Both the position numbers and the translations under genes were made by a program. Under the pieces are notes generated by a model. That model saw only the letters and a program-made list of their open reading frames with translations. It was not told where the DNA came from and did no database searches. This document shows, in pieces, positions 6,468-17,793 of a stretch of 55,307 nt of DNA (position 1 is its first letter; every line of letters begins with the position of its first letter). The DNA comes from an uncultured Candidatus Sumerlaeota bacterium (GTDB taxonomy: Bacteria; Bacillota; SLNR01): assembly GCA_964503545.1 (NCBI GenBank), contig CAZDAI010000001.1:1-55307 (forward strand), in the 5' to 3' direction.

Positions 6468-6656
6468 TTATTCGATGGAGATCGCACCCATGGGACATCC
6501 GTCAGCTGCAGCTCTCACAGCATCTTCCCATTCACTCTTGATTTCATCCACATAGACTTCACTCTTCCCTGAATCGCCCAGGCGGAAAACTTCTGGACAG
6601 GTTCCGGCACATGCGCCGCAGCCAATACATTCTTCCTGATTAACTTTTGCGATCAT
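6468..6656 (-). CDS. small [4Fe-4S]/[3Fe-4S] ferredoxin
   Basis: 62 aa. CIGCGACAGTCP motif plus a distal Cys-Pro (DGCP). Confidence 0.85.
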   Translation of the reverse strand: MIAKVNQEECIGCGACAGTCPEVFRLGDSGKSEVYVDEIKSEWEDAVRAAADGCPMGAISIE

Positions 6657-6744: not shown

Positions 6745-8196
6745 TTACTCTTGCCATTCCGGAATCGACATGGGTGAGAGGTCTTCCATGCTTCTCCCTG
6801 CTCTATCATATTTTTCTGCTTGCGGCCAGAGCCGATCCAGCGCCTTCTGGAATTGGGATACAATTCTTTCTTCGTCCAGATTTACTGCTTTGCCATTCTC
6901 TACAACAAACTTACCATCAACCATCACTTTATCCACATCTTCACCGCTTGCATTGTACACAATGTTCTTGATCGGATCGCGCAAGGGCGACATCCGCAGT
7001 GTGTCTGCTTTGAAGAATACCATGTCTGCTTTTGCCCCTTTGGCGATTTTCCCGAGATCATCACGGTTTAATGCTTTGGCACCCGTTAGGGTAGCAGCAT
7101 CAAAAACTTGACGGGCTGTGGCAGTGACAGTATCCTGATCATAGATTTTTGAAGCTACGGCTGCAATGCGCATTTCATTGATAAGATCCTGTGGGAATGT
7201 ATCCGTGCCCATGGCTACAGGAATGCCGAGTTTAAGATATCTGGATAGTGATTCAAGAATGATTGAGCGCCGGGCAAACACCCAAGGACAGTGGGCAACA
7301 TAGGCTTTCGACTCTGCCAGAAGCTCTAAATCACGATCACCGGGATACGCTACCGAACTGTGTCCACTGATGAATATACAGTGGCCAATGATCAGATTAC
7401 CGTTGAGAATTCCCAAATCATGCAGCCATTCAATGGGCGTCATGCCATAGCGTTCCATAATTTCACGAAACTCTACCAGTGACTGTGCAGCATGCACCTG
7501 AAGCCTTACGCCAAGCTTTTCTGCCTGTTCTTTGGCCGCAGCAAAAAGTTCAGGCGTACAGGTATCAATCTGGTAGGGGCTCAACATTGAATCAATTCTG
7601 CCATCATATGTGTTCTTCACTTTCCCGATAAAATCTACAGCATATTCCAGCCCCTTCATACCGGCTTCTTCATTCCATTTGTAATGGACTTTCTTACCGT
7701 CTGGAGTATACCAGGCCCCTGACTTAAAGGCGGGCACCACATAGCCTCGCATACCGCTGTCCCCTATGATCTGATGTGCTATCTCAGCATTCTGACGATT
7801 GAGTTCAACTACAGTTGTCGTACCGGTCTTCATCATCTCGGCGGCGGAGAATTCGCCGCACAATCTGAAGTCATCTTCCGTTGCTGCACTGTCCACGGCA
7901 CCATAATCATAAAGAGCACTCATTCCAAACTGGCGACTTCCTGTGTCCTCAAAGAAACTTTTATTGAGCGGGCTGTTCATCATATGCGCATGCACACTGA
8001 TAAATCCAGGTGATATTACATATGAAGAAGCATCAATTACTTTGTCTACGGGTTGGGAATAGTCTTTACCCACATGGATTACCGTGTTGCCTTCAACAAC
8101 AATCACTCCATCCCGAAGCAAGGCATGTTCTTTTCCGTTAAATGCAATGATCCAGCCACCTTTTATCATGGTCTTCTTACCAGCTGTCAAATTCAT
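6745..8196 (-). CDS. metal-dependent amidohydrolase (chlorohydrolase / aminohydrolase family)
   Basis: HxH motif (SVHAH), internal HAAQS, GHCIF and a terminal ..GTD.. The start is set at MNLTAGKK (8196), which is preceded by AGAGAGGAG. The maximal ORF extends to 8256. Confidence 0.8.
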   Translation of the reverse strand: MNLTAGKKTMIKGGWIIAFNGKEHALLRDGVIVVEGNTVIHVGKDYSQPVDKVIDASSYVISPGFISVHAHMMNSPLNKSFFEDTGSRQFGMSALYDYGAVDSAATEDDFRLCGEFSAAEMMKTGTTTVVELNRQNAEIAHQIIGDSGMRGYVVPAFKSGAWYTPDGKKVHYKWNEEAGMKGLEYAVDFIGKVKNTYDGRIDSMLSPYQIDTCTPELFAAAKEQAEKLGVRLQVHAAQSLVEFREIMERYGMTPIEWLHDLGILNGNLIIGHCIFISGHSSVAYPGDRDLELLAESKAYVAHCPWVFARRSIILESLSRYLKLGIPVAMGTDTFPQDLINEMRIAAVASKIYDQDTVTATARQVFDAATLTGAKALNRDDLGKIAKGAKADMVFFKADTLRMSPLRDPIKNIVYNASGEDVDKVMVDGKFVVENGKAVNLDEERIVSQFQKALDRLWPQAEKYDRAGRSMEDLSPMSIPEWQE

Positions 8197-8264
8197 CGCT
8201 CCTCTCTTAATCTCAGGTATGGTAATAATTCGTGCAATGCAAAATTTTCCCTGCATGGATTCCT

Positions 8265-11105
8265 TTAAAGCCGTATTCTGCAGTCAACAACTACAAATCG
8301 ATCTTTGTTGGAATCATAAATGAGTGGATTCAAATCCATTTCTGAGATTTGCGGCATATCCATTACAAGCCAGCCAACGCGGGCAATCAGGTCCGCCAGT
8401 TTTTCCAGGTTAATTCCCTTAGCACCTCTGAAACCTTTGAGGATCGGATAGCCGCACAACCGGCGGATCATCTCCATTGCCTGTTCATGACTAACCGGTG
8501 CGTAGCCGAAGGTTATGTCTTGATATACTTCTACTGCTGTTCCGCCAAAACCGATCATGATGCCATGCCCCAGCGAACCATCTCTGACGGCTCCGATGAT
8601 GACCTCCTGACCCGCAGGGATCTGTTCCTGAACTTCTACGCCTTCTGAACCTGGGAAGCGCTCTAGCATTGCCGCCACAGCCTTCTCCAGTTCCTGCTGA
8701 GATTGAATATTCATTACGACTCCGCCCACATCGGTCTTGTGGGTGATATCCGGATGTACAATTTTCAGTACAACCGGGTATGACTGTACCCGCTCTATCT
8801 GCTCCTCACCAGGCTTTAGCATAACTGTATGGGCAAATTCAAATCCATAAGCAGTCAGAAAATCCCTAGAAATCGGATTCGGAAGATAGCTGCCTCGTTC
8901 ATAGTCTGCAATGGAAAGCCTAAGGTTAGGGTTTAGTTTGTTCGGTTTGCTCCCTGCATCTACCGCTGCTGCAACAGGATGATCGCGCATCTGTGCCAGG
9001 GTAATGACAGTTTCTTCCGGAAAACCAAACGATGGAATGCTGCCTTCAATCATCACACGCCGTCCACCACTGCCTAAGGTCGGCCCGAAAAATGAACTAA
9101 GAACTGGAATTTGGATATTCTTCAGTTCTGTCTGCACAGCTTCTGCGACCTTGCCCGTATCGATGGTTGCCGGCGGAACACAGATCAACAGTAAAGCATC
9201 ATAGAGACCACTGTCTGCCATGGCTTTAACAGCCAAAGCATAGTGTTCAGGCGGTGCCGGTGCTACCAGATCCACGGGATTGCCAGTGGATGCTTCAGGT
9301 AAAAGTTCCTGCCCCAGGGCTTCTCGGGTTCCAACTGGCAACAGGGGGAGCTCAAAGCCATGGTCATGGAGCATATCAGCCACTAGAATACCGGGGCCAC
9401 CAGCGTTGGTGACAACCCCTACACGATTTCCCTTCACTTTAGGCATTACACTCAAGGCTGCCGCCAGGGTGAAAGCTTCACTTAAAGTCTTTACCCGTAT
9501 TGCGCCTGCTTGAGCTAGAAGTGCATCGGCTACTTGGTCATTTCCAGCCAAACTGCCCGTATGCGAACTGGCAGCCTGTGCCCCAGCTGCCGTCCGCCCT
9601 GCTTTTATAACAACGACAGGTTTTTTCCGAACCGCCTGGCGAATCAGATCACAAAAACGCGCTGGTTCTGTAATCGCTTCCAGGTATAAGAGCACCACCT
9701 TTGTCTGTTCATCGTCGATCAGCAAAGGCAGCAGATCATTGCTGGTAATATCCGCCTGATTGCCAAGGGATGCAATAATGGAAAACCCGAGCCCCATCGA
9801 TTCTGCATAATCAACCATCGCAGCCCCCAATGCTCCGCTTTGTGTCACAAAGCCAATACCGCCTCGTGGCGGGGCTGACTGGAGGATGTTCGCAAACAGA
9901 GACACCTCAGGATCTGTGTTTGCGATACCCATGCAGTTTGGGCCCAGAAGGCGCATATTATAATGATTCACAACCGCCAGAAGCTCTTTTTCTCTGGCAA
10001 GCCCTTCACTGCCAACTTCTTTGAATCCTGCAGAAATGCACACCAGCGCCTTGACCCCTTTTTCACCACATTCACTGGCAGCCTGGATCACTGCAGAAGA
10101 AGGAACAGCCAGAACAGCCATATCTACTGGTTCAGCAATATCCAGAACCGTAGTGTATCCGGGGACGTCCATCACATTTTCTCCCCGTCGATTGACTGCA
10201 AATACCTGCCCTGTAAAGCCTCCCGCTGCGAGATTGCGCACGATTGCATGGCCGATTCCTCCTTTGGCCGATGCTCCGATGACAGCCACACTGCGCGGTT
10301 TCACAAAAGCATCCATTGGCCGCATATACAAAGGAATGTTATTATCCCAGCTGGCGAGCCTTACCCCATGTGGCGCAGGTTCATTTTTGTAGTATACATT
10401 GCCTTGCTCGTCTTCCTGAAAAGCACCGCGAGCAATTTCCCAAATTGTTCTGGCAGCAATAGCCCGAGATTGTCGATTTACTGCGCTAAGATAATGGCGT
10501 TCTCCTTCGTCCCCTTTTAATCCGAGGGCTTTGTCAACGGGCACTGGTGGCGAAATCATCAGCAAAGGTCCGCCATCCAGTTTCTTGGTAGCAATGTGGG
10601 ATGACGAGTGCAGAGTATCGGCATCGGCATCCAAAGCATCGCGAATGCCGTGGGCTCCGGCATAAAGACGATGACCGTCTTTTTCTACAGACAAGTCCGC
10701 TGGATGCACATTCACAACTCTGTAAGTGTCAACCACGGCATCTGTCGTTGCCCAAACATAACCTGCCAACAAAATCAGATCAGGTTGGAATGGTTCAATC
10801 AATTTTAATACTTCCGCATCAAACATCGCGCGTACAGTTCGATCTTTCAGTGGGGCATTGCGATCTTTATGATACTGACGCAGATTCAGGCTCACATGGG
10901 GAAACCCATATTTTTCTGCTGTCTCAATCGCCTTGGACTGCGGATTATCAGAGAAAACACCCACCACTTCAAAGGGTGAACCTTCGGGGGATTTCTCCAA
11001 TTCTTTCTGTAGCTCCAATACTTTCCATAAGGTATTCCCTGATCCAGACGCAAACCCTACAACACGCATTTTCCCTTGACGAGGGTTATGAATTGGCAAC
11101 AACAT
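8265..11105 (-). CDS. fusion protein: PurN/Fmt-like formyltransferase domain + ADP-forming acyl-CoA synthetase (CoA-binding, ligase-CoA and ATP-grasp domains)
   Basis: The N-terminal region has GFASGSGNTL, NVHPADL and LDGGPL (Asn/His/Asp formyltransferase triad positions). It is followed by PRSVAVIGAS CoA-binding, SSHTGSLAG (phospho-His loop) and a C-terminal ATP-grasp. SD GGAGGAGG lies 9 nt upstream of the ATG at 11105. Confidence 0.8.
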   Translation of the reverse strand: MLLPIHNPRQGKMRVVGFASGSGNTLWKVLELQKELEKSPEGSPFEVVGVFSDNPQSKAIETAEKYGFPHVSLNLRQYHKDRNAPLKDRTVRAMFDAEVLKLIEPFQPDLILLAGYVWATTDAVVDTYRVVNVHPADLSVEKDGHRLYAGAHGIRDALDADADTLHSSSHIATKKLDGGPLLMISPPVPVDKALGLKGDEGERHYLSAVNRQSRAIAARTIWEIARGAFQEDEQGNVYYKNEPAPHGVRLASWDNNIPLYMRPMDAFVKPRSVAVIGASAKGGIGHAIVRNLAAGGFTGQVFAVNRRGENVMDVPGYTTVLDIAEPVDMAVLAVPSSAVIQAASECGEKGVKALVCISAGFKEVGSEGLAREKELLAVVNHYNMRLLGPNCMGIANTDPEVSLFANILQSAPPRGGIGFVTQSGALGAAMVDYAESMGLGFSIIASLGNQADITSNDLLPLLIDDEQTKVVLLYLEAITEPARFCDLIRQAVRKKPVVVIKAGRTAAGAQAASSHTGSLAGNDQVADALLAQAGAIRVKTLSEAFTLAAALSVMPKVKGNRVGVVTNAGGPGILVADMLHDHGFELPLLPVGTREALGQELLPEASTGNPVDLVAPAPPEHYALAVKAMADSGLYDALLLICVPPATIDTGKVAEAVQTELKNIQIPVLSSFFGPTLGSGGRRVMIEGSIPSFGFPEETVITLAQMRDHPVAAAVDAGSKPNKLNPNLRLSIADYERGSYLPNPISRDFLTAYGFEFAHTVMLKPGEEQIERVQSYPVVLKIVHPDITHKTDVGGVVMNIQSQQELEKAVAAMLERFPGSEGVEVQEQIPAGQEVIIGAVRDGSLGHGIMIGFGGTAVEVYQDITFGYAPVSHEQAMEMIRRLCGYPILKGFRGAKGINLEKLADLIARVGWLVMDMPQISEMDLNPLIYDSNKDRFVVVDCRIRL

Positions 11106-11134
11106 ACAATGCATCCTCCTCCATAGACAAGTTT

Positions 11135-11866
11135 TTACTTCATCTCAATTCGATTTCTCAGCGCTCCGACCAGCACCTTGTTTTCCGATGACCGGATGAT
11201 TTCTGCTGTAATTTCTTCTCCCGCGGTGCTGTTTACAGCCTCAATCGCGTCCAAAGCCAGCATCTTTCGGTATACATAGAGCGGGTAGGTGTAATAGTAT
11301 GAGAATTTTCCCGGATGATCGAAGGAAGGATGGAACAGGCGCAACATGCTCTTCCTTACCGGCTTACCGTAAGTATGGATGCTGATCGCGGTCTTGTCAT
11401 CGATGGCTCTCATGCTATGTGGTCCTTCCTCCAAAGGCAGTACATGGAAAACCTGCCCCTGCCCATAATTCTTTGGTTCCTGAGAATCAAGCATTACTGC
11501 ATGATCCTCTTCTCCCTGCCAAAGCCATTTTGTCTCTTCAATCTGGCCGCGATACAATCCGACAATTCCCCAAGAACCATGGTCATGGATCGGGTATGGT
11601 ACATGGGGCGCCCAGATAAAACAGTGCATAGAGAAATCTTTATCCGGATCGCGGTAGAGGCTAAAGCCGTTAATATCCGGCGGTAAAAAAGACTCCGGCT
11701 CTTCCTTTCTAGCTGCCTCAGCCAACACTTCAATGAGCAAATCCGGCTGGTTCATCAGCATTTCTTTGCATTCTTTTACCCGTTCAATTTTCTCATCGCG
11801 TTGCATATCACTGCTGCTGATCGCTTTTACTTGAGATAAATACTCATTGAACTCAATTTTTTTCAT
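11135..11866 (-). CDS. cupin-fold protein, cysteine dioxygenase type I-like
   Basis: 243 aa. FIWAPHVPYPIHDHGSWGIVGLYRGQIEE resembles the CDO metal-binding cupin motif. The start overlaps the upstream gene by 14 nt. Confidence 0.65.
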   Translation of the reverse strand: MKKIEFNEYLSQVKAISSSDMQRDEKIERVKECKEMLMNQPDLLIEVLAEAARKEEPESFLPPDINGFSLYRDPDKDFSMHCFIWAPHVPYPIHDHGSWGIVGLYRGQIEETKWLWQGEEDHAVMLDSQEPKNYGQGQVFHVLPLEEGPHSMRAIDDKTAISIHTYGKPVRKSMLRLFHPSFDHPGKFSYYYTYPLYVYRKMLALDAIEAVNSTAGEEITAEIIRSSENKVLVGALRNRIEMK

Positions 11867-12713
11867 GCTTTCTTATTTCCTCCTCTGACCAACTGCCCCA
11901 TTGGCGGTAATGATTCCATACCTGGCTTTCCGGAGAATGGGCATACGTTTCTAAATTGTCTTTCTCCGCCAAATACAGACCGGTCTTCTTTTCTCCGTTG
12001 AAAAGCTTTCTATCATTGCCAACAGGGCAGACTTTGATACAAATCCCACAAGGGTAGCAGCGTCTGCGTGTCAGATCTTCTGCTCGCTGAGCACAAGCCA
12101 GTGAGTTAAAATCTGGTTTGTATCTGTCATCCCTGGGCAATATCGCATTCACCGGGCAACACTGCGCACATGCGCGGCAGCGAATGCAGAGTTCTTTTTC
12201 CATGATGGGATCACCTTCAATTACAGCGTCAGCAAAAACAGAAACCCAGCGAATCCGAGGTCCATATTCAGATGTGAGGATGACATTGTTCATGCCGATG
12301 GTACCTAGCCCCGCATATTTTGCTGCATAGACATGGGAAAATGCAGCACGCGGTTTATCTTTAATAATGCGGATATTGCCATACCCATCTCTGGGAAACG
12401 AATAGGAGGCGATTCCTTTTCTGCATAAATGCCGGGAAAGTTGATACGCCAAATCATCCAGGACCCGGTTTACGGTGTTGTAGAGTTCCATATGCATAGC
12501 AGAAGGAGTGGTTTCAACTACAGGGAGAGGCATCCCCATTCCAAAAACGATGACTGTCTTGCCTTGAGGGAACAGACGGCCTGGGCGAAAATCTGGATGC
12601 ACCTCATTCAACTCATCCCACCGATTGACAGGTGCAAATCCAATTAAATCAGCACCTCGTTCTTTGAGAAACCCTAATACCTCGTCTTTTAATTCACTCT
12701 GTGCGATCATCAT
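11853..12713 (-). CDS. 2x[4Fe-4S] protein of the reductive-dehalogenase / epoxyqueuosine-reductase-like family
   Basis: CIRCRACAQCCP and CYPCGICIKVCP motifs. Paralogous to 51473..52249. SD GGGAGGTG lies just upstream of the tandem ATGs at 12713/12710. Confidence 0.7.
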   Translation of the reverse strand: MMIAQSELKDEVLGFLKERGADLIGFAPVNRWDELNEVHPDFRPGRLFPQGKTVIVFGMGMPLPVVETTPSAMHMELYNTVNRVLDDLAYQLSRHLCRKGIASYSFPRDGYGNIRIIKDKPRAAFSHVYAAKYAGLGTIGMNNVILTSEYGPRIRWVSVFADAVIEGDPIMEKELCIRCRACAQCCPVNAILPRDDRYKPDFNSLACAQRAEDLTRRRCYPCGICIKVCPVGNDRKLFNGEKKTGLYLAEKDNLETYAHSPESQVWNHYRQWGSWSEEEIRKHEKN

Positions 12714-12799
12714 GTCACCTCCCATTTATCATTGTGAGAGTAGAGGATTTTCTTTATATTAATCGAACATTTATGTAACCACACAAAGGGGGTATGAAA

Positions 12800-13060
12800 A
12801 TGGACTGCAAACTGATGGCTATCCGTGTTGACCAAAGAACCCTTCATGCTGTTGCTGTTCAGAAGTTGCTGACCGAATATGGGTGCCATATTAAAACTCG
12901 GATCGGCTTCCATGAAGCTCGTAAAGATTTTTGTGGTGAAGACGGGATTATTGTCCTGCATTTGTGTGCTGATGACCAAGGCGCAGCAGCTGAATCCCTA
13001 GCTACTGAATTGAACAGTCTCGATGGTGTGTCAGCAAAGATTGTCTCTTTTGACTGCTAG
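12800..13060 (+). CDS. small ACT/NikR-C-like putative regulator (resembles the TM1266-type Fe-only hydrogenase system regulator family)
   Basis: About 86 aa, divergent from the Fe-S/cupin operon. SD AAGGGGG lies 7 nt upstream of the ATG at 12800. The family assignment comes from a remembered sequence pattern only. Confidence 0.4.
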   Translation: MDCKLMAIRVDQRTLHAVAVQKLLTEYGCHIKTRIGFHEARKDFCGEDGIIVLHLCADDQGAAAESLATELNSLDGVSAKIVSFDC

Positions 13061-13226: not shown

Positions 13227-13853
13227 TTATTCCTCTGGAGGCGCTTTATACAATAGAGCGCGGATCTGCTCTTGTGCGTTTACCAGCAGATGGTCACCAT
13301 GGGAAAGAAAAGCTTTTTCAAAGGGGTACGACAGAAGTCTTTCGATGCTGTCTCTGGCCTTTATCACATCTTCTGAATACACTCGCGGCGGACTTGATAA
13401 CACTCCCCGATACCCCCCTGCTCCGAAGACACTGTCACCTGTGAACAAGATTCTTTCCTTCTCATAGTACAGTGCAATGTTGCCTGCTGAATGCCCCGGT
13501 ACATGGATTACACGCAGTATGCCTGCGACTAGGTCACCATGCTCAAGCGTTTGGGTAACAGGCACCGGAATCTTATCGATTTCCAGACTGTGAGCTGCAA
13601 TGGTAACTTCTGGCATCTTTGCAACAATCCCAGGCAATGCACCAGTATGATCGCGATGATGATGAGTAAGAATAATCATTGCAATGTTAAGGGGCATGAT
13701 TACACTAAGGAATTCTTTTGTGTCGTCCTCCATACAGGTGTCAATCAGAACATACCCATGCGATGTTTCCAATAAAAATGCGCGAAAACGATTCCCCCTA
13801 AACTCAGTCTGAATCTCGAAAATCCCCGGTAAAAGCTCGATTTTTTGAATCAT
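13227..13853 (-). CDS. MBL-fold metallo-hydrolase
   Basis: 208 aa with the THHHRDHTG metallo-beta-lactamase motif. The start overlaps the ACT gene stop by 1 nt (TAATG). Confidence 0.85.
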   Translation of the reverse strand: MIQKIELLPGIFEIQTEFRGNRFRAFLLETSHGYVLIDTCMEDDTKEFLSVIMPLNIAMIILTHHHRDHTGALPGIVAKMPEVTIAAHSLEIDKIPVPVTQTLEHGDLVAGILRVIHVPGHSAGNIALYYEKERILFTGDSVFGAGGYRGVLSSPPRVYSEDVIKARDSIERLLSYPFEKAFLSHGDHLLVNAQEQIRALLYKAPPEE

Positions 13854-14233
13854 TAATTATCACCCCTAAATTTGAATCCTGATTCTTCGAGTACTGTCTG
13901 CGCTAGCGCTGCCCCATCAATTTTTATCATAATATAGTCTGTACTGAATGTCGAGAGGGTATACACACTGATTCCTGTTTTTGCCAGAGGATCTAGAATA
14001 GAAGAGAGGATACTGACGAGAGAAAAACCCAGATGCCCTGCAACACGCAGCAGCTTCCAGCCTGCTTCTTTTCTGATTTGGTCAGGAATATTCTTATCCA
14101 GGCATACGATTGACAGCTCCTCTTCTGTCTTTGTTACAGACCAAAAGCCAGACCGGTTCAGCCATGCCGCTTCAGTTTCTTCCGGCGGGCATTGACATCC
14201 AGCATAACTGCCTGCCAGCCATTCCAACTCCAT
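13853..14233 (-). CDS. ACT-domain protein (ACT_7-like)
   Basis: 126 aa. Pattern ..EELSIVC..GWKLLRV.G.L.F..VSILSSI...LA..GISVYTLSTFSTDYIMIK. Confidence 0.6.
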   Translation of the reverse strand: MELEWLAGSYAGCQCPPEETEAAWLNRSGFWSVTKTEEELSIVCLDKNIPDQIRKEAGWKLLRVAGHLGFSLVSILSSILDPLAKTGISVYTLSTFSTDYIMIKIDGAALAQTVLEESGFKFRGDN

Positions 14234-14235
14234 GG

Positions 14236-14985
14236 TTAATCCTCAGAATCTTTATTAAACTGCCACAAGCTGTTGTAGCCAGTAATTTCTTTCTTCTCCG
14301 GCCATGCAAATGTTTTTATTTTACTCGTTTTCTTTCCTAGGTCGAAAAGACTTTCCACCATTTTTACAGCGGCTGCAACGCCATTGATCACCGGAACTTT
14401 GAGCTCATCTTCAATTTCTTCTTCCAGCCCCGCCATTCCGGCACAACCCAGCAGCAATGCTTCAGCTCCATCTTCTGCAACGGCTATTCGGCCCGCTTCT
14501 TTTAAAGCTTCCGCACCTCTTTTCGGATCCTGTTCAAAGTCCAGCACGCTCAAGCCGGTAGAGCGCAAAGATGCACAGCGATTCCATAATCCGTATTTGT
14601 GAATCAGCTCTTCGGTGATCATTTGGGATCTGGCCAGCACTGTCAGAACAGAGAATTTTGGTGCAAGCATGCAGGCGGTCAACATTGCTGCTTCAGCGAT
14701 GCCGATCACAGGGACACGCGTAATTTCACGTGCTGCAAAAAGCCCCGGATCACCGAAACAGGCAATGATATAGCCATTAAACCCTTCTTTTTCTCCCTGC
14801 AGCACTTCTTCTAATACACCCATAATCGCAATCTGCTCATCGTAGTAGCTTTCGATCGAAACCGGTCCGCGCCGCGGACTCACGGTCACGATCTCAGTGT
14901 CATTGCGGGCAATGGCTTTTGCTGACAATTCAATGGATCGTGTCATACCCCAGGTTGTATTGGGGTTAATTATTTTAATGCGCAC
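14236..14985 (-). CDS. Asp/Glu/hydantoin racemase family protein (hydantoin racemase-like)
   Basis: 249 aa with two conserved Cys-containing halves (..IIACFGDPG.. and ..LLLGCAGM..). Confidence 0.85.
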   Translation of the reverse strand: MRIKIINPNTTWGMTRSIELSAKAIARNDTEIVTVSPRRGPVSIESYYDEQIAIMGVLEEVLQGEKEGFNGYIIACFGDPGLFAAREITRVPVIGIAEAAMLTACMLAPKFSVLTVLARSQMITEELIHKYGLWNRCASLRSTGLSVLDFEQDPKRGAEALKEAGRIAVAEDGAEALLLGCAGMAGLEEEIEDELKVPVINGVAAAVKMVESLFDLGKKTSKIKTFAWPEKKEITGYNSLWQFNKDSED

Positions 14986-15012
14986 CTTGTTGCCTCCTTA
15001 TTATCGATTTCC

Positions 15013-16452
15013 TTAAATCGACTTGAATCTGCGTAACAGGGCCGGATCGAGTTTTCTTTTCACAAATCGTCCGATACCCGGTTCAGCCACCAGCTTACCA
15101 TCCTCAATGACCAACTGGCCCCTAAGATATGTGGCCATCACAGATCCTTTTGCTTTCATGCCCTCCCAAGGATTGTATTGGGTATCCAGATGGAGTTTGT
15201 CGTAGGTAAGTGTAGATTCCTGCTCTGGATCCACGAGAACAAGGTCGGCATCAAATCCGACGCCAATATCTCCTTTATGAGGATACAGACCAAAAATTCG
15301 GGCAGCATTGTAGCTGGTAATTTTCACAAACTCATTCCAGGTCAGCCGGCCCTTATTGATTCCCTCCGACACGATAACGTGGAACCGGCTTTCCATCCCG
15401 GTAAGACCATTGACAACCTTATGGAACTCCGGAATTATTTCACCCTGGGCATCCACATCCATGGGGGCACGTTTCGCTGCCGCAGAATAGTTGCAGTCAT
15501 CCGATCCCGTTACTGACAGGGAGCCTTCTGATAATCCGTCCCACATAGCCTGCACATGGTCTTCGGATCTCAATGGCGGACTGCAGATATACTTGTAGCC
15601 ATCTTTGCGTTTTAGCAATTCATCGGTCAGGCTCAAGTAATGGGAGCAGGTTTCCCCGTAAACCGGCTGCCCAGTCTTCTGAGCTGCTGCAATTGCTTCC
15701 ACACCGCCGCGGGTTGAAACATGATAAACAAAGATAGGGCACTGTGTTCTGCGTGCCAGATACACTGCCCTTTGTATTGCTTCCTCTTCTGCGATGGGCG
15801 GCCGAGTTCGTGCATGTGCGTGCCAATCTGTCTGCCCGGAAGCTACAGCTTCGTCAATGAGCGATTCAACAATATCATTGTTTTCTGCATGCACACCCGG
15901 CAGGGCATGGTGTTTGCGTGCTTCTTCCAGTACTTTAAGCATTATCCCGTCATGAGCCTGTATTCCCTGTTTCCTGTAAGTCATAAACATCTTGAATGTT
16001 GGTACTCCATAGGCGACCAATTCCCGAATCTCTTGGATGATCCGCTCCGGTGCTTCTACAATCCGTGGGTGAAAGGAATAATCGATCACTGCCTTTCCTT
16101 TTGCTTCCGCATCTTTTACCCGGACAGAATCAAGCATGGTTTGACCGATATCTGTGTTGGTAAAATCGAGAATGGTGGTTACACCGCCGAAAGCAGCGGC
16201 TGCAGTCCCGCTAAAAAAATCTGCGGCTCCCATCTGTCCCATAAATGGGGACAGAAAATGAACGTGCATATCGATAAGTCCGGGTAGTACCAGTAATCCA
16301 TCAGCATCAACTTCACGGTGCGCAGGTGGAACATCCTTGGTTGAAAGGATTGCAGAAATTTTCCCCCCGGAAATGGCGATATTCCCCTGGTAAGAATCTC
16401 TCGCTGTTGTAATCATGCCATTCTTAATGATTAGATCATACACAATACTCAC
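15013..16452 (-). CDS. dihydropyrimidinase / D-hydantoinase
   Basis: 479 aa cyclic amidohydrolase. DMHVHF metal motif, TFKMFMTY (carbamylated Lys region), HAEN, and a terminal ..SDDC... Confidence 0.88.
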   Translation of the reverse strand: MSIVYDLIIKNGMITTARDSYQGNIAISGGKISAILSTKDVPPAHREVDADGLLVLPGLIDMHVHFLSPFMGQMGAADFFSGTAAAAFGGVTTILDFTNTDIGQTMLDSVRVKDAEAKGKAVIDYSFHPRIVEAPERIIQEIRELVAYGVPTFKMFMTYRKQGIQAHDGIMLKVLEEARKHHALPGVHAENNDIVESLIDEAVASGQTDWHAHARTRPPIAEEEAIQRAVYLARRTQCPIFVYHVSTRGGVEAIAAAQKTGQPVYGETCSHYLSLTDELLKRKDGYKYICSPPLRSEDHVQAMWDGLSEGSLSVTGSDDCNYSAAAKRAPMDVDAQGEIIPEFHKVVNGLTGMESRFHVIVSEGINKGRLTWNEFVKITSYNAARIFGLYPHKGDIGVGFDADLVLVDPEQESTLTYDKLHLDTQYNPWEGMKAKGSVMATYLRGQLVIEDGKLVAEPGIGRFVKRKLDPALLRRFKSI

Positions 16453-16575
16453 TCCCCTCAGTCCTCTGCTCCTGCTTTTTGTTTGTACTTTCGAACTTCT
16501 CCACGACTAAAAAGCTGTTTACACCTGTTTGTATTCGGCGAGTAATTGGCTACCTGGTTCCTTCATCATATCCCG

Positions 16576-17793
16576 TTAATCACCAGTGTCCTGATCGATC
16601 GCCACAATGGCATGAAGAAGCACATCAGCACCATGCCCCACATCCTGCCAGTCTGTCCATTCATCAGGAGAATGACTGATGCCACCTTTGCTGGGCACAA
16701 ATATCATGGATGTTGGGGTCAGATAAGACATAGCCACCGCATCATGTCCGGCGGCGCTGGGCATGACATGAAAATCGACCCCCACTTTTTTGCATGCTTC
16801 CTTGATCTTCTGCTGAATTCCCGGATGTAGACGAACAGGTTCCTTTTCAACAATTTTTTTGAAAGTGATGCCACCCAGATTATCAGCAAAATGGCGCAAG
16901 CGTTCATAAACCAGAATCGGATCCCAGGCATTGATATCGCGGAATTCCACATTCAGTTTTACTTCACCCGGTATAACATTGATGGCATTCGGTTTTACCT
17001 GTACGGAACCCACTGTGCCAACCATATCGGCACTTTCCTCCATAACAAATTGCTGAACAGCCAGTATGATCCGGGCCGCTTTAACGAGTGCATCATCACG
17101 CTTATCCATGGGTGTTGATCCTGAGTGATTGGCTTCCCCCAGTACAGTCACCTCATAGCGGTAAATCCCTACGATCCCGTATACAATGCCGATTGGCGCT
17201 TTCCTCTCTTCCAGAAGACCTCCCTGTTCAATATGCATTTCCAAAAAAGCCTTCAATGTCCTCGGATGGCGCTTTGCCGTCTCCAGATTCTCCAGTGTTA
17301 AGCCGAAGGCATGCAGATTGCCCTCCATGATCAGTTTTTGCTGTTCTGTCAGCACATCCAATTGGACCTGCCCAGCCATTGCTCTGCTGCCAAAAGTTCC
17401 GCCCAATGCGCTGCCTTCTTCCGCAGAGAAAGCAATTATCTCCATTGGATGCCTCAATCGAACGCCCTTCTCCTGCATTGTCTGCAGGCATTCAATACCG
17501 CTGAGCACACCAATATTGCCATCGAACAATCCTCCATTGGGGACTGTATCGATGTGGGATCCTACCACAATTGAGGGCAGTCCTTCTTCTGAGCCGGGAT
17601 AATAGCCGATCAGATTGCCTGCCGGATCCACTCTGACGCGGCAACCCAGGCTTCTCATCAGATCCCCGACAAAGCGTCTCCCTTCAATATCTTCTTTTGT
17701 AAACGCACGCCTCGTAACCCCTCCATCTGGAGCCTTGCCGATCTCTCCCAGATCCAGAATCATCTTCTTGAGTCGCTCTCGATTGATTCTCAC
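16576..17793 (-). CDS. M20-family N-carbamoyl-amino-acid amidohydrolase / allantoate amidohydrolase-like
   Basis: 405 aa with GSHIDTVPNGGLFDGNIGVLSGIE and the C-terminal ..PSAAGHDA.. motif. Confidence 0.88.
   Translation of the reverse strand: MRINRERLKKMILDLGEIGKAPDGGVTRRAFTKEDIEGRRFVGDLMRSLGCRVRVDPAGNLIGYYPGSEEGLPSIVVGSHIDTVPNGGLFDGNIGVLSGIECLQTMQEKGVRLRHPMEIIAFSAEEGSALGGTFGSRAMAGQVQLDVLTEQQKLIMEGNLHAFGLTLENLETAKRHPRTLKAFLEMHIEQGGLLEERKAPIGIVYGIVGIYRYEVTVLGEANHSGSTPMDKRDDALVKAARIILAVQQFVMEESADMVGTVGSVQVKPNAINVIPGEVKLNVEFRDINAWDPILVYERLRHFADNLGGITFKKIVEKEPVRLHPGIQQKIKEACKKVGVDFHVMPSAAGHDAVAMSYLTPTSMIFVPSKGGISHSPDEWTDWQDVGHGADVLLHAIVAIDQDTGD

Follow-up and report, generated by a model that had tools for sequence, protein, structure and literature searches.

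What would a formyltransferase do in one chain with an acyl-CoA synthetase, and is such a chain real? The question is raised by a gene at 8265-11105 on the minus strand of a 55,307-nt stretch of DNA from an uncultured Candidatus Sumerlaeota bacterium (the whole stretch is here called the window). It encodes 946 aa plus a stop, in which a PurN-like formyltransferase (FT) domain is fused to what is, by its domain content, a complete ADP-forming acyl-CoA synthetase (ACD). The protein, referred to below as FT-ACD, belongs to a conserved, uncharacterised family and, judged by its residues, is probably a genuine bifunctional enzyme.

Reality of the fused gene

The open reading frame listing and translation give a longest frame of 949 aa at 8265-11114 on the minus strand. 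Because a Shine-Dalgarno sequence (GGAGGAGG) lies 9 nt upstream of the ATG at 11105 and the N-terminus ML.P.HNP is common to all homologues, we place the start at this ATG, which results in 946 aa. A previous sequence-only reading had given the same length without stating the strand, and each of the motifs it quoted (NVHP, LDGGPL, PRSVAVIGAS and SSHTGSLAG) is found in the translation.

An assembly or annotation artefact, in which a sequencing error joined two neighbouring genes into one frame, might be suggested by the split two-gene versions present in other organisms, where an FT gene of 259-260 aa overlaps or abuts an ACD gene of 682-695 aa (L091/L092; L095). The existence of these split forms also means that the fusion links real partners. 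The fused gene is found in 76 loci from independent assemblies of at least five phyla, its junction region is conserved, and the single-chain AF2 model is confident (pLDDT 90.9, pTM 0.89). Among the 120 matches listed, of 199 in all, ACD domains occur in all 120, a PF00551 match in 118 and a length of 905-977 aa in 117. Since orthologues are intact in 76 species genomes, an assembly chimera is untenable, and we regard the chance of an artefact as negligible. The proposed 946-aa fusion is real by its open reading frame, domain searches and intact homologues; a survey of its distribution, likewise proposed earlier, recovers the architecture in at least 199 protein clusters and 76 species genomes from at least five phyla.

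The acyl-CoA synthetase half

The C-terminal 680 residues appear, from their sequence, to be a catalytically complete ACD. All five subdomains are matched above the Pfam cutoffs (CoA-binding 1, flavodoxin-like 2 and 5, ATP-grasp 3 and 4), among them Succ_CoA_lig (PF13607, E 1.5e-51) and ATP-grasp_5 (PF13549, E 2e-58), with CoA_binding and Ligase_CoA_2 also matched; the NCBIfam ACD alpha model reaches E 9e-142. On the minus strand, the CoA-binding Rossmann fold of subdomain 1 (PRSVAVIGAS...) is encoded at 9918-10301 (PF13380, PF02629 and the alignment to 8wzu), and subdomain 2 with the swinging phosphohistidine loop SSHTGSLAG at 9453-9866 (PF13607; His at 9561-9563). Subdomain 5 follows at 9009-9419 (PF19045), and the ATP-grasp domain, with subdomains 4 and 3, at 8268-8897 (PF13549, invariant columns and a match to 4xyl_B).

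Residues 265-946 thus have the single-chain order 1-2-5-4-3 of the ACD superfamily, as in the Nitrosopumilus 4-hydroxybutyrate-CoA ligase (8wzu) and Ca. Korarchaeum ACD1 (4xym), and share with this superfamily the CoA-binding motif, the phosphohistidine loop and the ATP-grasp domain. The match to 8wzu has E 9e-124 in phmmer and TM 0.89, over 696 columns, when the ACD body of the AF2 model is compared by Foldseek. The ACD hallmarks named in the earlier reading (CoA-binding motif, phosphohistidine loop and C-terminal ATP-grasp) are not only present, they are invariant across the family: S514-H515-T516-G517-S518 of the loop is unchanged in 76 fused homologues, as are K781, H789-K790-x-D792 and E922-x-D924-x-N926-P927 of the ATP-grasp domain, in keeping with the second conserved His and the nucleotide/Mg ligands expected of an ACD. 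H789 is presumably the counterpart of the archaeal beta-subunit His of the Pyrococcus work. In alignment, the SHTG motif falls on SHTG of 8wzu, and we infer that its histidine corresponds to H256, named as the conserved swinging-loop histidine (PMC11494057). The predicted chemistry would be acid + ATP + CoA <-> acyl-CoA + ADP + Pi via the swinging phosphohistidine.

FT-ACD homologues carry the NCBI product name acetate-CoA ligase (ADP-forming), whereas the equivalogs of this name are not reached (TIGR02717, 472.8 against a cutoff of 567; NF045494, 424 against 1200); in fact FT-ACD scores below every NCBIfam equivalog cutoff. Its 262-aa N-terminal formyltransferase domain is not known from any characterised ACD. 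ACD members with a second function or domain are found among the structure matches, namely PatZ/Pat (an ACD-like module with a GNAT) and DddX (an ACD-family DMSP lyase). The appendage of Pat is a C-terminal, acetyl-CoA-using GNAT and that of FT-ACD is N-terminal and folate-type, while DddX has no extra transferase domain; the ACD of FT-ACD keeps both histidines.

Origin of the formyltransferase domain

The N-terminal domain (aa 1-262, at 10320-11105, minus strand) is of the long-PurN type including a C-terminal beta-hairpin extension, as delimited by Pfam, NCBIfam, PDB alignments and Foldseek, and is homologous over its full length to stand-alone proteins of about 250-290 aa. Formyl_trans_N (PF00551) matches at aa 16-187 of the 949-aa translation (E 1.3e-11, 45.1 bits against a cutoff of 26.1; 48.4 bits in the genome-wide profile search), and the PurN model TIGR00639 matches with E 1.3e-18 and 67.2 bits, under its equivalog cutoff of 150.1. 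A domain search, suggested with the original reading, therefore returns both Formyl_trans_N/PurN and ACD models from Pfam and NCBIfam. The modelled domain has the fold of E. coli PurN (Foldseek TM 0.89 to 1cde) and shares HPADL with its 7-aa insert and the C-terminal hairpin with a "long PurN" clade.

A tree of the N-domains unites the fused and the split FTs in one group, clade A (SH-aLRT 99). Its sister, clade B, comprises stand-alone FTs beside genes of the benzoate-CoA-ligase family, whose products score above cutoff as such enzymes. Both clades together (support 99) are sister to PurN-like proteins that are encoded in pur operons or fused to PurD or 5-formyl-THF cyclo-ligase. Within clade A, the gene cluster of one subgroup (L086/L087) has, in place of the ACD, a family III CoA-transferase with best scores to CaiB, succinyl-CoA:mesaconate and succinate-hydroxymethylglutarate transferases and not to Frc (248 vs 125 bits). 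The offshoot of clades A and B is always found beside a CoA-thioester-forming enzyme, be it an ACD, a family III CoA-transferase or an AMP-forming ligase. From the tree and the partner replacement it follows that what constantly accompanies this FT lineage is an enzyme forming CoA thioesters; the whole PurN-derived lineage has left purine synthesis and now travels with such enzymes of three unrelated families.

The residues of formyl transfer are retained, as the sequence-only reading had held for the Asn-x-His and the Asp. N132 and H134 of the N-V-H (10704-10712, minus strand; 946-aa numbering) align in HMMER to N106 and H108 of E. coli PurN (1c2t), and the catalytic D177 in the LDGGP loop (10575-10577, minus strand) to D144. 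Across the 76 fused homologues H134 and D177 are invariant, D177 being invariant in all three clades, and N132 is conserved in at least 90%, with replacements in a minority of members such as Gly in P0118. N132, H134, D177 and R92 are conserved across all clades compared; R92 is aligned to E. coli R64, which we take to hold the folate glutamate tail. The FT domain is at least as conserved as the remaining protein (51-79% vs 49-71% identity).

Other positions differ from E. coli PurN. In clades A and B, N13 is replaced by T or S (T in FT-ACD), E173 by S, H174 by an invariant R and R90 by an invariant W; the substitutions at N13, E173 and H174 are fixed in both clades, unlike in the PurN-like sister clade, and Arg214 and Asn210 are newly invariant. 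N13 in the phosphate loop and the E173/H174 helix are, as we understand the E. coli PurN structures, GAR-binding positions, with E173 and N13 presumably binding GAR ribose and phosphate. With an invariant Trp in its folate loop, the domain may have an altered donor pocket as well. We interpret this pattern as descent from the "long PurN" GAR-transformylase lineage, with the formyl-transfer machinery apparently kept and the acceptor site remodelled. By their conserved residues, both halves of FT-ACD look catalytic.

That PurN is the nearest known family, and that among deep relatives some are encoded behind purL/purQ and others fused to PurD, could indicate an alternative GAR transformylase for purine biosynthesis, with the ACD activating formate, as a third solution beside PurN and PurT. 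However, a canonical PurN (180 bits) is encoded on contig C11 of the host genome, a pur-operon arrangement is found in none of 58 loci (judged from gene orders, not by a pur gene-name search), the positions E173 and N13 are replaced, and the PurN model gives 67 bits against 150. We consider a purine role very improbable. The earlier assignment to a PurN/Fmt-type domain accordingly stands for the fold and the catalytic residues; an ordinary PurN it is not.

The remodelled pocket, with its invariant Trp and the new Arg214 and Asn210, and the pairing with three unrelated families of CoA-ester-forming enzymes are also consistent with a change of donor. The FT-fold domain would then move an ACD-made acyl group from acyl-CoA to an amine as a folate-independent N-acyltransferase, yielding an N-acyl amino acid by the Pat-like logic of a CoA-ligase-type module with a transferase. 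Against this stand the invariance of R92 and a site built for a one-carbon unit, where clade B would need aromatic acyl groups, and we know of no FT-fold enzyme with an acyl-CoA donor. Such a switch appears improbable.

Gene neighbourhoods

The operon in the window starts with a 2x[4Fe-4S] protein of distant QueG/reductive dehalogenase likeness (11853-12725), whose gene overlaps by 14 nt that of a 243-aa CDO_I-like cupin (11135-11866; PF05995, E 2.3e-5). The cupin stop at 11135 is 29 nt ahead of the FT-ACD start. Downstream follows an amidohydrolase of the chlorohydrolase/deaminase family (PRK06151; 6745-8196; NCBIfam 419.5 bits, cutoff 416), which starts at 8196 or 8256, that is 8-68 nt past the FT-ACD stop, with a Shine-Dalgarno sequence in support of 8196; it is a possible deformylase or deaminase partner. 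The last gene, an open reading frame for a 62-aa ferredoxin (6468-6656), has an orthologous Fer4 gene in L006 and L007. All four lie on the minus strand, and their spacing bears out the tight operon described before. The amidohydrolase beside the fusion is conserved in L006, L007 and L009-L012, and the cupin adjoins the fusion only in the window's own clade. The neighbours named in the earlier reading are thus present in the window, but hold only for its small clade, and elsewhere other genes take their place.

Outside this clade the usual neighbours are an isopropylmalate/homocitrate-synthase-like (IPMS/HCS-like) enzyme, an aminotransferase, a transporter and a regulator. The IPMS/HCS-like gene lies within six genes in 34 of 58 loci (24 of the 36 with enough flank), and transporters (SNF or TRAP), regulators and aminotransferases are near FT-ACD in 37, 35 and 20 of the 58, respectively. 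The host genome likewise encodes an IPMS-like gene (60% identical) and a MerR-HTH-cupin regulator of the type seen at other loci, both on another contig. A second plain ACD occurs in six loci, and four have FTHFS at no more than 10 kb. Transporter types vary (SNF, TRAP, DASS, HAAT ABC), hence the substrate may differ among subclades, or be a hydroxy-dicarboxylate without an amine to formylate. Hydrolases of different families recur, namely the amidohydrolase of the window, Abhydrolase_3 in L095 and Synergistaceae loci, and a creatininase-family protein in L093; these could serve as deformylases. A hydrolase is found within six genes in only about 10 of 58 loci, and the gene neighbourhoods of the core Oscillospiraceae and spirochaete clusters hold no obvious deformylase.

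This setting also permits a pathway without a formyl step, since the ACD, the DRE-TIM (IPMS/HCS-like) enzyme, the aminotransferase or 2-hydroxyacid dehydrogenase and the TRAP/DASS dicarboxylate transporters are coherent by themselves. The FT domain would then no longer be a transferase and would instead serve an otherwise ordinary ACD in ligand sensing, regulation or oligomerisation. This ACD would supply acetyl-CoA or another acyl-CoA to the linked synthase, or else activate a hydroxy-dicarboxylate for lyase-type cleavage, as do malate thiokinase/malyl-CoA lyase and citryl-CoA synthetase/citryl-CoA lyase. The CoA-transferase that replaces the ACD indeed resembles dicarboxylate/hydroxymethylglutarate CoA-transferases working with HMG-CoA-lyase-type enzymes, the second plain ACD could recover ATP from acetyl-CoA, and E. 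coli PatZ, among the structure matches, also joins an ACD-type module (presumably non-catalytic) to a second, transferase domain. However, His134 and Asp177 are invariant, Asn132 nearly so, and the R64 equivalent is kept in more than 70 sequences at 50% overall identity. Moreover, the FT is kept as a separate gene where the fusion is split or the ACD replaced, a pattern to be expected of an enzyme that catalyses a separate step and not of an appended regulatory domain. The loss of transferase function is in our view unlikely, with a real chance of being correct.

Comparison with formyl-CoA and formyl-phosphate chemistry

A further alternative keeps the transferase and changes its acceptor. In a HypX-like shuttle, the FT would move formyl between 10-formyl-THF and the thiol of CoA and the ACD part would catalyse formyl-CoA + ADP + Pi <-> formate + CoA + ATP, a second, FTHFS-independent link, usable both ways, of formate and ATP with the folate C1 pool. 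Transfer to a thiol has a parallel in ALDH1L1, which hands a formyl group to a phosphopantetheine thiol. The ACD, the family III CoA-transferase (the archetype of which is formyl-CoA transferase) and the AMP-forming ligase all handle CoA thioesters, neither the formyl-transfer residues nor the R64 equivalent have been lost, and the FTHFS genes near four loci would fit. The best precedent for a folate-CoA link is HypX, which joins an FT-fold domain and a CoA-ester-processing domain in one chain and for which formyl transfer from 10-formyl-THF to CoA has been proposed (PMC6802093). Its FT domain, however, is FDH/Fmt-like with an OB subdomain and not PurN-like, and its partner, in a hyp-gene context, is a crotonase-fold decarbonylase with constitutively bound CoA in place of an ACD. 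We read the likeness as an analogy of logic only. The partner enzymes also argue against formyl-CoA, as the replacing CoA-transferase is CaiB/dicarboxylate-like and the clade B partners are of the benzoate-CoA-ligase family; FTHFS is already encoded in the host genome and in some of the loci examined. The IPMS/HCS-like enzyme, whose gene is the most strongly linked, cannot take formyl-CoA as Claisen donor because it has no alpha-carbon. A shuttle of this kind is unlikely, if worth keeping in mind.

The sequence-only reading had pointed to PurT, with formyl phosphate as intermediate, and to a reverse, ATP-yielding direction. These ideas are possible only in the form of the formyl-CoA shuttle and share its poor fit to the partner enzymes. 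PurT resembles FT-ACD only in its logic, an ATP-grasp enzyme coupled to formylation, with homology limited to the generic ATP-grasp fold. Formyl phosphate is its direct product, and it lacks a CoA site, a phosphohistidine and a PurN domain; the PurT model is absent from the NCBIfam matches to FT-ACD.

A proposed function

Building on the observed architecture, residue conservation, phylogeny and gene linkage, we propose a substrate class, an order of steps, a direction of the ACD reaction and a formyl donor. Tentatively, and with somewhat less than even confidence, we favour a shared substrate for the two halves, a single amino-carboxylic acid that would be both N-formylated and CoA-activated for the IPMS/HCS-like C-C enzyme. 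The FT domain would formylate the amino group from 10-formyl-THF and thereby mask the amine, and the ACD would turn the carboxyl group into a CoA thioester. The N-formyl-aminoacyl-CoA would pass to the DRE-TIM enzyme, which would make or break the C-C bond adjacent to the thioester, while the linked aminotransferase or 2-hydroxyacid dehydrogenase would deliver or take up a 2-oxo acid. The formyl group would later be removed by a hydrolase, in the window the downstream amidohydrolase. N-acyl masking ahead of carboxyl activation has precedents in ArgA/ArgB and LysW/LysX/LysZ, and PurD-PurN fusions pair an ATP-grasp ligase with formylation of the glycyl amine. We know of no precedent, however, for an IPMS-type enzyme working on an N-formyl-aminoacyl-CoA, and the Fe-S protein, cupin, amidohydrolase and ferredoxin of the window operon are not accounted for by this model.

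The narrower statement, that the PurN offshoot and a CoA ligase make N-formyl-aminoacyl-CoA which the IPMS/HCS-like enzyme condenses with, or cleaves from, a 2-oxo acid, we hold to be rather unlikely. An example of such a product would be N-formylglycyl-CoA, the thioester analogue of FGAR.

Implications

Literature and database searches found neither a characterised enzyme nor a paper with the FT-ACD architecture, in agreement with the earlier statement that no enzyme with this fusion has been characterised. The physical and genetic coupling of an ACD and a PurN-type formyltransferase, each a textbook enzyme by itself, is previously undescribed. The FT lineage with CoA-ester partners spans at least five bacterial phyla, with members living in the gut, the rumen and the termite gut, and marks a metabolic module of transporter, aminotransferase, IPMS-like enzyme, FT, CoA ligase and dedicated regulator. 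FT-ACD suggests that anaerobic bacteria have a so far undescribed way of metabolising amino acids or organic acids. Solving its function would reveal either that formyl groups mask amines on CoA esters, a new use for them, or that folate and CoA are joined by a new one-carbon link. It would also put right the catch-all annotation "acetate--CoA ligase family protein" and assign a role to widespread IPMS/homocitrate-synthase paralogues outside leucine and lysine synthesis. If the N-formyl-aminoacyl-CoA reading is true, this compound would represent a novel type of building block, activated and with its amine masked, and the module a new C-C bond pathway of amino-acid metabolism that depends on folate and CoA, in anaerobes of gut, rumen, termites and sediments.

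Gene structure and domain architecture

The gene under study, FT-ACD, joins a PurN-like formyltransferase (FT) domain to an ADP-forming acyl-CoA synthetase (ACD) and reads as one long minus-strand ORF (8265..11114), encoding 949 aa from its first ATG. A ribosome-binding site (GGAGGAGG) lies 9 nt ahead of the second ATG (11105), and the N-terminus ML.P.HNP is common to every FT-ACD homologue; the start at 11105, and with it the 946-aa product proposed in the sequence-only reading, is retained on these two grounds. The catalytic residues named below are numbered on this product.

The motifs from which that reading recognised the two halves (NVHP, LDGGPL, PRSVAVIGAS and SSHTGSLAG) are all found in the translation, and the Pfam search places Formyl_trans_N and the full ACD domain set on one chain: Formyl_trans_N (E 1.3e-11) at aa 16-187, counted on the 949-aa translation, then CoA_binding, Succ_CoA_lig, Ligase_CoA_2 and ATP-grasp_5. 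Among the NCBIfam models, PurN matches at E 1.3e-18, under its cutoff, and the ADP-forming CoA-ligase models at E 1e-112 to 1e-147, each under its equivalog cutoff. Among solved structures, residues 270-947 match the Nitrosopumilus 4-hydroxybutyrate-CoA ligase end to end (E 9e-124), and the N-domain matches several PurN structures, its N-x-H falling on N106/H108 and its Asp on D144 of the E. coli enzyme. In an AlphaFold2 model built from 76 homologues (mean pLDDT 90.9, pTM 0.89) the ACD part superposes on 8wzu and the N-domain on E. coli PurN 1cde, both with TM 0.89. FT-ACD belongs to both the ACD superfamily and Pfam Formyl_trans_N; tested for membership of PurN, the acetate-CoA ligase equivalogs, HypX and PurT, it failed each time.

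Distribution of the fusion

A search with the N-domain alone as query, in which candidate length was limited to that of the whole protein, returned 199 protein clusters. Among the 120 matches listed from these 199, all carry ACD domains, 118 have a precomputed PF00551 match and 117 are 905-977 aa long. JGI names them 'acyl-CoA synthetase (NDP forming)/PurN', and elsewhere their name is 'acetate--CoA ligase family protein'. When a single genome of each species was scanned, 76 FT-ACD loci emerged, in the Bacillota families Oscillospiraceae, Lachnospiraceae, Tissierellaceae and Acidaminobacteraceae and also in Spirochaetota, Synergistota, Thermodesulfobacteriota (Ca. Adiutrix) and MAGs labelled Ca. 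Sumerlaeota, which hold the nearest relatives of the window's protein (75-79% identity). Carriers in culture include Cuneatibacter sp. NSJ-177 and Gudongella sp. DL1XJH-153 (loci L021 and L045). Because the same architecture is conserved across species, an assembly chimera of two genes is rejected, and the chance that FT-ACD is an artefact is negligible.

Two details of this distribution bear on taxonomy. Loci L066 and L067, deposited in one Synergistales and one Phycisphaerales MAG, have one contig label (contig_20860) between them and agree in length (2010 bp) as well as in the coordinates, identity and E-value of their match; judged from these scan-table values, they are probably a binning duplicate, which makes the lone Planctomycetota count for the family doubtful. 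The conserved housekeeping gene order lysS, greA, dusB ... coaX, birA, nadC, folK, folB, folP, ftsH, taken from window positions 1-25000 and from loci L006/L007, looks Bacillota-like, and the Ca. Sumerlaeota label of the closest-relative MAGs may be questionable.

Catalytic residues and the formyl acceptor

In the alignment of 76 FT-ACD sequences, H134 and D177 are invariant and N132 is kept in at least 90%, which bears out the earlier proposal that the N-domain retains its catalytic positions. Equally invariant are the phosphohistidine loop S514-H515-T516-G517-S518, H789-K790-x-D792 and the nucleotide-site residues E922/D924/N926. The N-domain is conserved no less than the remainder of the protein (51-79% against 49-71% identity). 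Both halves thus look catalytic at the level of sequence, and we regard FT-ACD as a putative bifunctional protein in which each of the two active sites is intact. The notion that the FT-fold domain is an acyl-CoA N-acyltransferase seems to us quite improbable.

Column conservation was further compared between clade A (fused and split FTs), its sister clade B (stand-alone FTs) and a PurN-like clade. R92, N132, H134 and D177 are kept in all clades; R92 aligns to E. coli R64, which binds the glutamate tail of the folate. Clades A and B share fixed differences from the PurN of this genome and from the PurN-like clade: the phosphate-loop Asn (E. coli N13) is Thr/Ser, the folate-loop R90 position is an invariant Trp, the E173 position is Ser, the H174 position is an invariant Arg, and there is a new invariant Asn210. 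Since E173 and N13, which we take to be the GAR ribose and phosphate ligands in E. coli structures, are replaced, the formyltransferase chemistry appears to be kept while the acceptor appears no longer to be GAR. An acceptor other than GAR is consistent with the presence in this genome of canonical PurN (180 bits), Fmt and FTHFS, by which a role as housekeeping PurN substitute is rejected; that FT-ACD is an alternative GAR transformylase is very improbable.

Origin of the formyltransferase domain

Searched exhaustively with HMMER, the N-domain gave 259 representatives at E <= 1e-10, most of them stand-alone proteins, 250-290 aa long, whose match spans the full N-domain. They share with it a C-terminal hairpin which ordinary PurN lacks. 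The deep relatives include fusions with PurD or with 5-formyl-THF cyclo-ligase (P0168, P0159, P0169, P0174, P0213, P0260) and one protein whose gene lies directly 3' of purL/purQ; such proteins are evidently genuine GAR transformylases, of a 'long PurN' type. The cyclo-ligase architecture joins 5-formyl-THF salvage to a formyltransferase.

In the maximum-likelihood tree all fused N-domains fall, with some stand-alone proteins, in clade A (SH-aLRT 99). Clade B, of about 250-aa stand-alone proteins, is its sister; a node with support 99 unites the two, and the PurN-like group is sister to this node. Split forms of clade A have an FT gene that overlaps or directly adjoins the ACD gene (L091/L092; L095). 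One clade A subgroup (L086/L087) has no ACD and carries a family III CoA-transferase in the same cluster. Clade B FTs are flanked by AMP-forming ligases of the benzoate-CoA-ligase family and by HAAT-type ABC transporters, with a creatininase-family hydrolase in one locus, and represent a second uncharacterised module of FT and CoA ligase. At L088, L089 and L093 the clade B gene lies around 8001-8750, between or beside the benzoate-CoA-ligase-family genes, and one of these loci also holds an aldehyde:ferredoxin oxidoreductase.

Fusion and split forms constitute a Rosetta-stone linkage of FT to CoA ligase. As ACD, family III CoA-transferase and AMP-forming ligase alternate, what stays constant beside this PurN offshoot is a CoA-thioester-forming enzyme, of whatever family. 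AMP-forming ligases in practice run only toward CoA esters, and their use in clade B leads us tentatively to favour the CoA-ester-forming direction for the clade A ACD as well.

A formyl-CoA shuttle (10-formyl-THF <-> formyl-CoA <-> formate + ATP) would, if real, realise the idea of the sequence-only reading that deformylation could be coupled to ATP synthesis, and HypX is a good structural precedent for its logic (PMC6802093). It fits badly, however, with partners of the CaiB/dicarboxylate and benzoate-CoA-ligase types, with FTHFS in the same genome and with a partner resembling isopropylmalate synthase (IPMS), and we consider it unlikely. The CoA-transferase of L086/L087 was considered as a Frc-type formyl-CoA transferase, an identity that would have favoured the shuttle, and was rejected on scoring CaiB/dicarboxylate-like instead.

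Genomic neighbourhood

ORFs were called in all fetched loci and clustered by BLAST; the spurious antisense clusters 10, 31, 32 and 39 of the simple ORF caller were discarded, and genes up to six genes from the fusion were counted in the 58 loci with an FT-ACD gene. A DRE-TIM protein of about 405 aa, resembling isopropylmalate, homocitrate or citramalate synthase, occurs in 34 of the 58 loci (24 of the 36 well-flanked ones), a transporter (SNF symporter or TRAP DctPQM) in 37, a regulator (MerR-HTH_3-cupin or GntR-FCD) in 35, a class I aminotransferase (LysN/KAT-like or AspAT-like) in 20 and a second plain ACD in six. Genes for D-2-hydroxyacid dehydrogenase, SDR and alpha/beta-hydrolase recur in Synergistaceae-type loci. 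FT and CoA ligase are thus linked to a DRE-TIM carbon-carbon enzyme, to 2-oxo-acid-generating enzymes and to uptake systems. Compared with the PDB, the TRAP and HAAT binding proteins gave generic DctP and amino-acid-binding matches only, with no clue to substrate. Four loci (L001/L017, L013, L019, L069) have an FTHFS gene no more than 10 kb away from the fusion, which gives a weak hint that 10-formyl-THF supply is linked to the module.

These neighbours might also be read with a non-catalytic FT domain and the ACD as thiokinase for a lyase-type DRE-TIM enzyme, much as malate thiokinase serves malyl-CoA lyase. Such a reading accounts for the transporters and the plain second ACD, but leaves unexplained both the invariant catalytic residues and the upkeep of FT as a separate gene, and we hold it to be doubtful.

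The window and loci L009-L012 depart from this pattern: a 2x[4Fe-4S] protein comes first, then a CDO-like cupin, FT-ACD, a chlorohydrolase-family amidohydrolase and ferredoxin, with a PALP enzyme between the last two in some members of the window's clade. The cupin and amidohydrolase noted earlier as flanking genes therefore hold for these loci; elsewhere the usual neighbours are the IPMS-like enzyme, transporter, regulator and aminotransferase. Divergent from the operon is an 88-aa ORF (12794-13060, plus strand) without a Pfam match on record, possibly a dedicated regulator, whose 84-85-aa orthologue occupies the corresponding position of L006 and L007. The operon island sits between coaX and dusB and adjoins a minus-strand operon directly upstream (13227-17793) for carbamoylase, D-hydantoinase, hydantoin racemase, an ACT_7 protein and an MBL-fold hydrolase. 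Hydantoinase and carbamoylase are strong sub-cutoff matches to ErtD (253 bits) and ErtE (413 bits) of the ergothioneine pathway, and on this account the FT-ACD operon may receive glutamate, or some other amino acid, from the island.

FT-ACD is the sole ATP-grasp_5 ACD of this genome, whose IPMS-like gene (60% identical) lies on another contig, C69, at about 7332-8555 (minus strand) of the fetched locus L085, divergent from a MerR-HTH_3-cupin regulator (8728-9555). Within 4524-11376 of L085 the IPMS-like gene is followed by genes for a 128-aa protein, an MtnX-like HAD-IB phosphatase, a PALP enzyme resembling threonine/serine (or 3-hydroxyaspartate) dehydratase and an ankyrin-repeat protein, and the regulator by a 554-aa Amidohydro_3 protein. 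Comparing the two promoters, of the window operon and the C69 IPMS-like gene, by eye gave no convincing shared operator.

Possible function

Amino acids activated at the omega position react with themselves, as do free aminoacyl thioesters, and masking of the amine ahead of carboxyl activation is an established strategy, with N-acetylglutamate in arginine and LysW in lysine synthesis; PurD-PurN fusions likewise couple ATP-grasp glycine ligation to formylation of the glycine amine. On these grounds we tentatively propose, as our preferred reading, with a real though less than even chance, that FT and ACD jointly formylate and CoA-activate an amino-carboxylic acid for the IPMS-like enzyme, with deformylation later. 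The FT half would N-formylate the amino group of the acid or of its CoA ester with 10-formyl-THF as donor, the ACD half would make the CoA thioester, and the IPMS-like enzyme would take or yield the masked aminoacyl-CoA. Deformylation would then fall to varying hydrolases, the amidohydrolase here, Abhydrolase_3 elsewhere and the creatininase-family protein in clade B.

A search of the full-text literature found no publication on this architecture, and databases carry generic names only for what is a joining of known kinds of enzyme inside an unassigned pathway.
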